A stretch of DNA of 11,186 nt from a virus (lineage: Duplodnaviria > Heunggongvirae > Uroviricota > Caudoviricetes). The position numbers and the translations under genes were made by a program. The notes below the pieces were generated by a model that saw only the letters and a list, made by a program, of their open reading frames with translations, was not told where the DNA came from and searched no databases. Below, piece by piece: positions 4,369 through 4,448 of this stretch (the first letter of the stretch is position 1; the number at the start of each line of letters is the position of its first letter). The stretch lies in the IMG/VR virus record IMGVR_UViG_2671180603_000013, positions 1 through 11,186 of that record; one strand, 5' to 3'.

Positions 4369-4448
4369 CCGCCATTAGCTTATCAGGAAGAGCAGACGAC
4401 ACGATAACAGGGTTGTTGGTGCGGGGGCGGGTCCCCGATGGCGGTCCA
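4369..4448 (+). pseudogene. degenerate tRNA-like element (anticodon arm replaced, non-canonical T-loop)
   Basis: Acceptor (CCGCCAT/ATGGCGG) and 3' CCA are conserved relative to the intact paralog at 7367..7443, but the central 30 nt has no anticodon stem and the T-loop lacks TTCAA. Confidence 0.45.

Follow-up and report, generated by a model that had tools for sequence, protein, structure and literature searches.

The tRNA cluster ileZ-argN-argO, reportedly first described for phage 933W, is carried as an operon by lambdoid prophages of E. coli, including those that encode Shiga toxin, just downstream of the late-gene regulator. Non-decoding sequences derived from tRNA genes are known elsewhere in the same species. 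The prophage-associated tRNA pseudogenes pauD, pawZ and ptwF of E. coli K-12 are partial 3′ duplications, which result from integration at attachment sites, and the spacers of some tRNA operons, namely 3′ETS-leuZ and the internal spacers of metZWV, act as sponges. The names ileZ, argN and argO appear in GenBank records of Stx2 phages (e.g., Stx2a_WGPS8), and full-text searches of the literature found no paper that uses them in the relevant sense. The presence of tRNA genes downstream of Q in lambdoid phages is itself documented (PMC3636060), and a 2026 paper describes stx2i prophages in which a "tRNA-pseudo-tRNA-Arg" arrangement, instead of Ile-Arg-Arg, lies beside stx2i (PMC13641118).

Here, we analyze an 11,186-nt stretch of viral DNA (IMG/VR record IMGVR_UViG_2671180603_000013), hereafter the window, which contains two copies of this cluster. 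A first-pass annotation had described the middle element of cluster 1 (4369-4448) as degenerate, and its paralog in cluster 2 as an intact tRNA-Arg(UCG). We find this to be so, and conclude that 4369-4448 is most probably a non-functional pseudogene relic of argN, the gene for tRNA-Arg(UCG) and the middle gene of ileZ-argN-argO.

RESULTS

Two tRNA clusters in a mosaic prophage region

The window comes from the late-regulatory region of a lambdoid E. coli prophage and is mosaic in makeup. ARAGORN identifies five tRNAs on the plus strand, two in cluster 1 (anticodons CAU and UCU) and three in cluster 2 (CAU, UCG and UCU), and Rfam confirms the same five with scores of 58-72.5 bits (Table 1). The clusters are direct repeats, 3 kb apart. 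Their ends are homologous, with 4246-4389 matching 7244-7387 at 94% and 4431-4551 matching 7426-7546 at 91%, in agreement with the earlier statement that both copies of the middle gene share the acceptor stem and CCA. Between these arms lies a non-homologous core (about 4390-4430), about 41 nt in one copy versus 38 nt in the other, which cannot be aligned. The two CAU tRNAs are identical, and the two UCU tRNAs differ at a single acceptor-stem position (G·U versus A-U). Hence divergence is indeed targeted to the middle gene, as had been proposed.

Table 1. Features of the two tRNA clusters and of the argN pseudogene (window coordinates)
Feature	Position	Strand	Basis or remark
Intrinsic-terminator-like hairpin and T-run	4223..4242	+	Follows antiterminator-like ORF 3329-4183 and separates it from the tRNA operon
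Putative promoter of cluster 1, TTGCGG-17-TATTAT	4248..4276	+	Inferred; positional homologue of 7246-7274
Intact ileZ-type tRNA (anticodon CAU)	4286..4361	+	ARAGORN; Rfam, 72.5 bits; homologues annotated "tRNA-Ile" by PGAP in 042 and EDL933
argN pseudogene, retained 5′ part: acceptor 5′ strand CCGCCAT, TA, D arm GCTT-ATCAGGAA-GAGC	4369..4393	+	Alignments and fold
argN pseudogene, 28-nt replacement block AGACGACACGATAACAGGGTTGTTGGTG	4394..4421	+	Alignment and fold
argN pseudogene, T-arm remnant: stem CGGGG/CCCCG kept (4422-4426, 4433-4437), loop GCGGGT	4422..4437	+	
argN pseudogene, retained acceptor 3′ strand ATGGCGG, discriminator T, encoded CCA	4438..4448	+	
Intact argO-type tRNA-Arg(UCU)	4462..4538	+	ARAGORN; Rfam, 68 bits
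Promoter-like site of cluster 2, TTGAAG-17-TATTAT, 9/12 matches	7246..7274	+	Promoter scan
Intact ileZ-type tRNA (CAU)	7284..7359	+	ARAGORN, Rfam
Intact argN-type tRNA-Arg(UCG), functional counterpart of the pseudogene	7367..7443	+	ARAGORN; Rfam, 58 bits (7367-7440)
Intact argO-type tRNA-Arg(UCU)	7457..7533	+	ARAGORN, Rfam
Intrinsic-terminator-like hairpin and T-run closing cluster 2	7548..7565	+	

Promoter- and terminator-like sites, together with the homologous position of the cluster 1 promoter, place 4369-4448 within a short tRNA operon. The putative cluster 1 promoter has a weaker -35 hexamer than its cluster 2 homologue and goes unreported by the promoter scan itself. A minus-strand ORF (4340-4627; 95 aa, TTG start; "hypothetical protein" in mEp460) spans the three tRNA-derived sequences, and was not treated as a gene.

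The two clusters have different neighbors. In E. coli 042, the position homologous to ORF 3329-4183 is annotated "antitermination protein", and cluster 1 comes after genes for DUF968, RusA and this protein; the only tRNAs in the PGAP annotation there are tRNA-Ile and tRNA-Arg. Cluster 2 comes after a DNA methyltransferase gene, the same as in Shiga-toxin phages. No complete E. coli genome has the whole 11.2-kb arrangement, the best matches covering 82-83% of it in 5-7 pieces. It therefore appears that the juxtaposition seen here, a Q-type module with a pseudogene cluster beside a methylase-type module with an intact cluster, is an uncommon recombinant.

Other repeats are present in the window. 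A 300-nt direct repeat (1657-1956 versus 2960-3259, 90% identity) spans two RusA-like ORFs (1649-2029 and 2958-3332), and the occurrence of two Holliday-junction-resolvase paralogues 1.3 kb apart suggests that two late-region modules have been fused in tandem. The sRNA family STnc100 (RF02076), which has been related to PasD sRNAs (2026 preprint), is represented by three plus-strand copies, at 5235-5424, 7610-7799 and 8077-8286 (132, 124 and 161 bits, respectively). These share an 88-nt repeat (5205-5292, 7580-7667 and 8047-8134), and a conserved segment with TTGAC(A/T) precedes each copy; copy and preceding segment together look like a late-promoter/leader module. Two of the three copies lie in tandem upstream of a 617-aa esterase ORF. 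Between the first copy and the methyltransferase gene is a 111-aa minus-strand ORF (5450-5785). At the matching place in E. coli 042, there is a 336-nt gene that PGAP labels "anti-adapter protein IraM", a correspondence by position alone.

Element 4369-4448 is not recognized as a tRNA

ARAGORN makes no call at 4369-4448 with default settings or with the relaxed settings -ps, -ps80, -ps70 -i and -ps60 -i, the last two of which allow introns. These relaxed settings, and the mitochondrial and tmRNA modes, add only spurious reverse-strand calls elsewhere. Likewise, an Rfam scan of 4340-4475 at E≤10 gives no match to the tRNA family RF00005. Thus neither tool ever yields a canonical cloverleaf with a defined anticodon, the finding that would have spoken against degeneracy. 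The same scan returned matches to MIR169 (13.5 bits) and an lncRNA (9.1 bits), which are noise. The one YrlA match, in a related locus (L127; 19.9 bits, gathering score 69), runs across both ileZ and the middle element, and is an insignificant artefact of tRNA-likeness.

The element retains a 7-bp acceptor stem (CCGCCAT with ATGGCGG), the discriminator base and the 3′ CCA. In the 5′ part, a C-to-T change relative to intact alleles has converted one D-stem pair to G·U, and the D loop is one base shorter. The two main lesions are elsewhere. The anticodon arm had been described as replaced by a 30-nt sequence with no stem. A replacement is clear, although it measures 28 nt; it stands for 23 nt of intact alleles, comprising the base at position 26, the anticodon arm and the variable loop, and offers no 7-nt anticodon loop in register. 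The T loop is the 6-nt GCGGGT, as noted before against the TTCAAGT of the cluster 2 copy, and lacks both T54 and T55; the closest intact relatives have TTCGGGT. Compared to a functional tRNA, then, the element lacks recognition by tRNA models, a 5-bp anticodon stem with a 7-nt loop one base past the D stem, and a T54-Ψ55-C56 loop.

The minimum-energy fold of 4369-4448 is nonetheless four-armed and cloverleaf-like. Contrary to the description of a stemless insert, the block can form a 7-bp hairpin (CGAUAAC/GUUGUUG, 4402-4408/4412-4418) with two G·U pairs and a 3-nt loop, AGG. The fold as a whole is not significant (z = -1.29), as 25 of 200 shuffled sequences fold equally well. By comparison, the intact copy at 7367-7443 has the canonical cloverleaf as its minimum-energy fold, with z = -2.85.

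Could the element be a working, non-canonical tRNA? The hairpin can be redrawn as a 5-bp stem (CGAUA/UGUUG) closed by a 7-nt loop (ACAGGGU), which would present a nominal anticodon AGG, and PGAP has labeled a phiP27-type version of the element "tRNA-OTHER". As an anticodon arm, however, this hairpin is implausible, because 8 unpaired bases separate it from the D stem, where tRNAs have one, and position 33 is C rather than U. The short T loop without T54 and T55, the absence of an ARAGORN call at any threshold tried and the absence of an Rfam tRNA match at E≤10, which holds also for the version whose T arm is intact, all weigh against such a tRNA, as does the fact that its stem is broken in 17 of the 115 related loci considered below. 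We regard this reading as scarcely credible.

The origin of the block was sought within the window and among phages, and neither search yielded a donor. Local alignment of the block to ileZ, argO, argN and the two strands of the window gives scores no better than those of shuffled sequences (p = 0.19-0.84), and for this reason a by-eye likeness to the anticodon arm of ileZ was dropped. A sensitive blastn search of 50,697 phage records recovers this tRNA cluster only, plus one chance 20-nt match. The promoter scan reports no new plus-strand promoter for argO created by the block.

Lesions of argN occur singly in related prophages

To place this allele among its relatives, we compared 128 clusters, gathered by a scan of viral contigs, whose search pattern drew its anchors from ileZ and argO alone, and supplemented by genome-contig matches, one annotated locus and the window. 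The middle element occupies the same position between ileZ and argO throughout. In 80 clusters all three tRNAs are called; in 42 the middle call is missing, and 35 of these carry the 28-nt block. A 16-nt core of the block, ATAACAGGGTTGTTGG, is invariant in those 35 loci, which were sampled without reference to it.

Several intermediates are seen. In L091, in phiP27 and in the Stx2e prophage of ETEC6335, the block is present, the T loop (TTCGAGT) is normal and the D stem keeps its original GCTC; L127 is also a block-only allele of the phiP27 type. Conversely, L060 has a normal UCG anticodon arm and the altered T loop GGCGGGT. A third allele, L115, is intact; its T loop is TTCGGGT, and its 3′ spacer is identical to that of the element in the window. 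Since each lesion is found alone in relatives, block replacement and T-loop change are separable. The window's allele would thus descend from an L115-like gene, via replacement by the block and a TT-to-G(G) change, and recombination between alleles may have been involved.

In other relatives, argN has been inactivated or altered differently. There is a 17-nt deletion in the anticodon arm in three loci (L010, L046, L051), a GG-to-AA change in the 3′ strand of the acceptor stem in seven (L002, L059, L085, L099, L110, L117, L118), single-base deletions in two (L047, L093) and a UCG-to-UCU anticodon change in one (L020). The idea that the middle gene is targeted thus extends beyond the window: judging from these alleles, argN would be a generally expendable member of the operon, inactivated in several independent ways across related prophages.

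The dead allele is widespread in E. coli

We searched 5426 complete E. coli genomes for a 52-mer specific to the block-bearing form (4385-4436, the degenerate core), and found it in 1563 (about 29%), at 1724 places. The corresponding 52-mer of intact argN is present in at least 1001 complete E. coli genomes, with roughly 1340 copies. Of 40 records drawn as a spread sample for the block-bearing form, 39 have no feature annotated under the match, and one has "tRNA-OTHER". Sequenced phage genomes carry the block as well, including mEp460_ev081, four vB_EcoS records and phiP27, the last as the block-only variant; the GenBank record of phiP27 annotates ileZ and argO only. Because phage genomes such as mEp460_ev081 and phiP27 carry it, the degenerate allele is not merely a by-product of prophage decay. 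When one representative genome per species is considered, the cluster is found in Escherichia only, aside from two doubtful metagenome bins, and the degenerate form in E. coli only. The block-bearing clade is shallow and essentially restricted to E. coli, for which reason neither its conservation nor its decay is strongly informative.

The gene upstream of the degenerate allele differs three ways. It encodes an antiterminator in the window and in 042, a DUF1133 protein in EDL933, where the allele resides in a non-Stx prophage, and a DNA methylase in phiP27. This raises the possibility that 4369-4448 matters as DNA, either as a substrate for recombination between lambdoid prophage modules or as an attachment site for an integrating element. 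That one pseudogene allele follows three different genes would fit such a role, as would the appearance of the tRNA cluster as a conserved island amid highly variable flanks, the two direct copies 3 kb apart in the window, and the existence of chimeric alleles (block with intact T arm; intact anticodon arm with mutated T loop). However, any conserved tRNA cluster would make an equally good patch of homology, and the degenerate core, being the part that is not shared, cannot itself promote exchange. Moreover, no inserted element is seen at the site in about 240 related loci, within the spacing that the search patterns allowed. Exchange at this locus is better viewed as a side effect of homology that belongs to the whole conserved cluster than as a function of its degenerate core, and we consider a role as DNA decidedly improbable.

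Changes within the element resemble those of an unconstrained sequence

For a second scan, we used 16 nt of the block as anchor, hence without selecting on the flanking tRNAs, and obtained 115 usable loci. ARAGORN calls ileZ in all 115 and argO in 113, and the middle element in none. The element is represented by 24 alleles (the commonest in 43 of the loci), ileZ by 10 (96) and argO by 14 (58). Per nucleotide, variable sites in the element are not dramatically more frequent than in the flanking tRNAs of the same loci. With so modest a contrast in rate, and with a clade so young, it is the nature of the changes, indels and uncompensated stem breaks, that speaks for relaxed constraint.

Such changes are evident. 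Among 17 block-bearing alleles, there are nine pair-breaking entries that reduce to seven distinct changes, five in the acceptor stem, one in the hairpin and one in the T stem, and compensatory, two-sided pair changes number zero. The hairpin break, G4403C, is common to 3 of the 17 alleles, occurs in 17 of the 115 loci and is uncompensated. Deletions occur in the T arm and at the 3′ end. The G-run of the T-arm remnant (4423-4427 and homologous positions) ranges from 4 to 16 G among the 115 loci, with long runs linked to a T8-to-G change; this spread could stem from slippage in an unconstrained sequence, or from misassembly of homopolymers. In the argO relatives, a compensated C-G swap is found in the T stem in 15-17 of the 115 loci. 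We also note uncompensated T-stem changes in argO in four of the 115 loci, and an argO 3′ end that encodes CTA rather than CCA in 16 of the 115, loci distinct from those with the swap.

It has been suggested that the element might be not a tRNA pseudogene but a tRNA-derived element with another role. One form of this idea is that the ileZ-argO spacer, roughly 100 nt, is freed by RNase P and RNase E and serves as a functional RNA, either a sponge or decoy comparable to the 3′ETS-leuZ spacer or a decoy for a tRNA-binding or tRNA-cleaving protein. A cloverleaf-like fold with a 7-bp acceptor stem, D arm, T stem and CCA is what such an RNA might look like, and the element does lie inside a tRNA operon, is abundant in complete genomes and is borne by sequenced phages. 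The invariance of ATAACAGGGTTGTTGG in the 35 block-bearing loci could also be cited, but carries little weight, given how young the clade is. Against it stand the lack of any advantage of the fold over shuffles, the lack of covariation, and the commonest hairpin variant, which breaks its pair without compensation. The acceptor stem has been broken five independent times, the T arm has suffered deletions, and its G-run is hypervariable. The element matches no Rfam family, and the literature on prophage sRNAs that was examined names no RNA from 4369-4448. On balance, a functional RNA seems very unlikely. The more specific proposal, in which a freed, tRNA-shaped spacer RNA would accumulate and titrate a tRNA-binding enzyme or a tRNA-targeting toxin or defense nuclease, or else would sponge an sRNA, strikes us as even less likely. 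If true, it would help explain why, in the complete genomes searched, the dead allele is no rarer than the live one (1563 versus at least 1001 genomes).

Of the two possibilities raised at the outset, then, that of a pseudogene is the one borne out, by separate lesions, uncompensated breaks, indels and intact neighbors; we found nothing in support of another role.

DISCUSSION

In this study, we have examined a tRNA-like element in the late region of a lambdoid prophage. It shares position and homology with argN, bears disabling lesions for which intermediates exist in relatives, and varies in a way that suggests relaxed constraint. To judge from sequence comparison, these properties are those of a pseudogene. 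We conclude that its history is one of ordinary gene decay, with no indication of a new function or mechanism.

The following scenario can be envisaged. An ancestral intact argN, with a T loop of the TTCGGGT type, would have sustained two separable lesions: the anticodon arm and variable loop were replaced by the 28-nt sequence, and the T loop was stripped of its two thymidines, TT becoming G or GG. Either lesion may have come first. The minor changes in the D arm would have come afterwards. Lying between two intact tRNAs in one promoter-to-terminator unit, the pseudogene is probably still co-transcribed with its neighbors, and its RNA may still be cut out of the precursor, since the 7-bp acceptor stem, T stem and CCA are kept, and then be degraded. 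With no anticodon loop and no T54/Ψ55, this RNA is predicted to be unable to decode. Charging is also very unlikely, given that the identity elements read by arginyl-tRNA synthetase include anticodon bases.

The dead allele appears to have been passed among prophage modules by recombination, and now matches the intact one in frequency. These phages would accordingly be able to dispense with argN, whereas they have kept ileZ and argO. Why might this be so? In E. coli, the host tRNA-Arg(ICG) and tRNA-Arg(CCG) already read CGA and CGG, and AUA and AGA/AGG depend on scarce host tRNAs. Host readers of CGA and CGG are thus a plausible reason for the dispensability of argN. Codon usage in eight ORFs of the window (per 1000 codons: ATA, 11.7; AGA, 5.8; AGG, 2.9; CGG, 12.6) neither supports nor refutes dispensability, which the value for CGG does not obviously fit. 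Repeated independent loss of argN, with retention of ileZ and argO, amounts to a small natural experiment on the selection of phage tRNAs. It points to selection on readers of AUA and AGA/AGG, not on those of CGA/CGG, and as such is relevant to a long-standing puzzle, the reason for tRNA carriage by temperate phages, those with Shiga toxin among them.

The value of this work lies mainly in annotation and in the reading of phage tRNA sets. Because the dead argN is left unannotated in nearly all records examined, an apparent "Ile + Arg" cluster in a prophage is in reality "Ile + dead Arg + Arg".

How does the element compare to known systems? Like pauD, pawZ and ptwF, it is a non-functional, tRNA-derived sequence associated with a prophage. 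Unlike them, it is a full-length gene internal to an operon, inactivated by replacement of its middle. With the tRNA-operon spacer sponges and Y RNAs of the YrlA type, it has in common that the RNA is derived from or resembles tRNA without decoding, and that it is located in an internal transcribed spacer; it differs in that its sole YrlA match, that in L127, falls well short of the gathering score.

A close system is argN of Stx and other lambdoid phages. Here the position between ileZ and argO, the acceptor stem, the discriminator, the CCA and the T stem are all the same, and the D arm and spacers are near-identical. What sets 4369-4448 apart is the unrelated 28-nt block in place of the anticodon arm and variable loop, the 6-nt T loop without T54/T55, and the lack of recognition by tRNA finders. 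Also close are two degenerate versions, the unannotated ileZ-argO spacer of phiP27 (AJ298298, Stx2e) and the "tRNA-OTHER" of the ETEC6335 Stx2e prophage, which contain the same 28-nt block at the same position. Both have a normal 7-nt T loop (TTCGAGT), a GCTC D stem and a G·G mismatch in the T stem, whereas the allele in the window has an additional lesion in the T loop. On the strength of these alignments, the phiP27 and ETEC6335 versions would represent earlier or recombinant forms of the same pseudogene.
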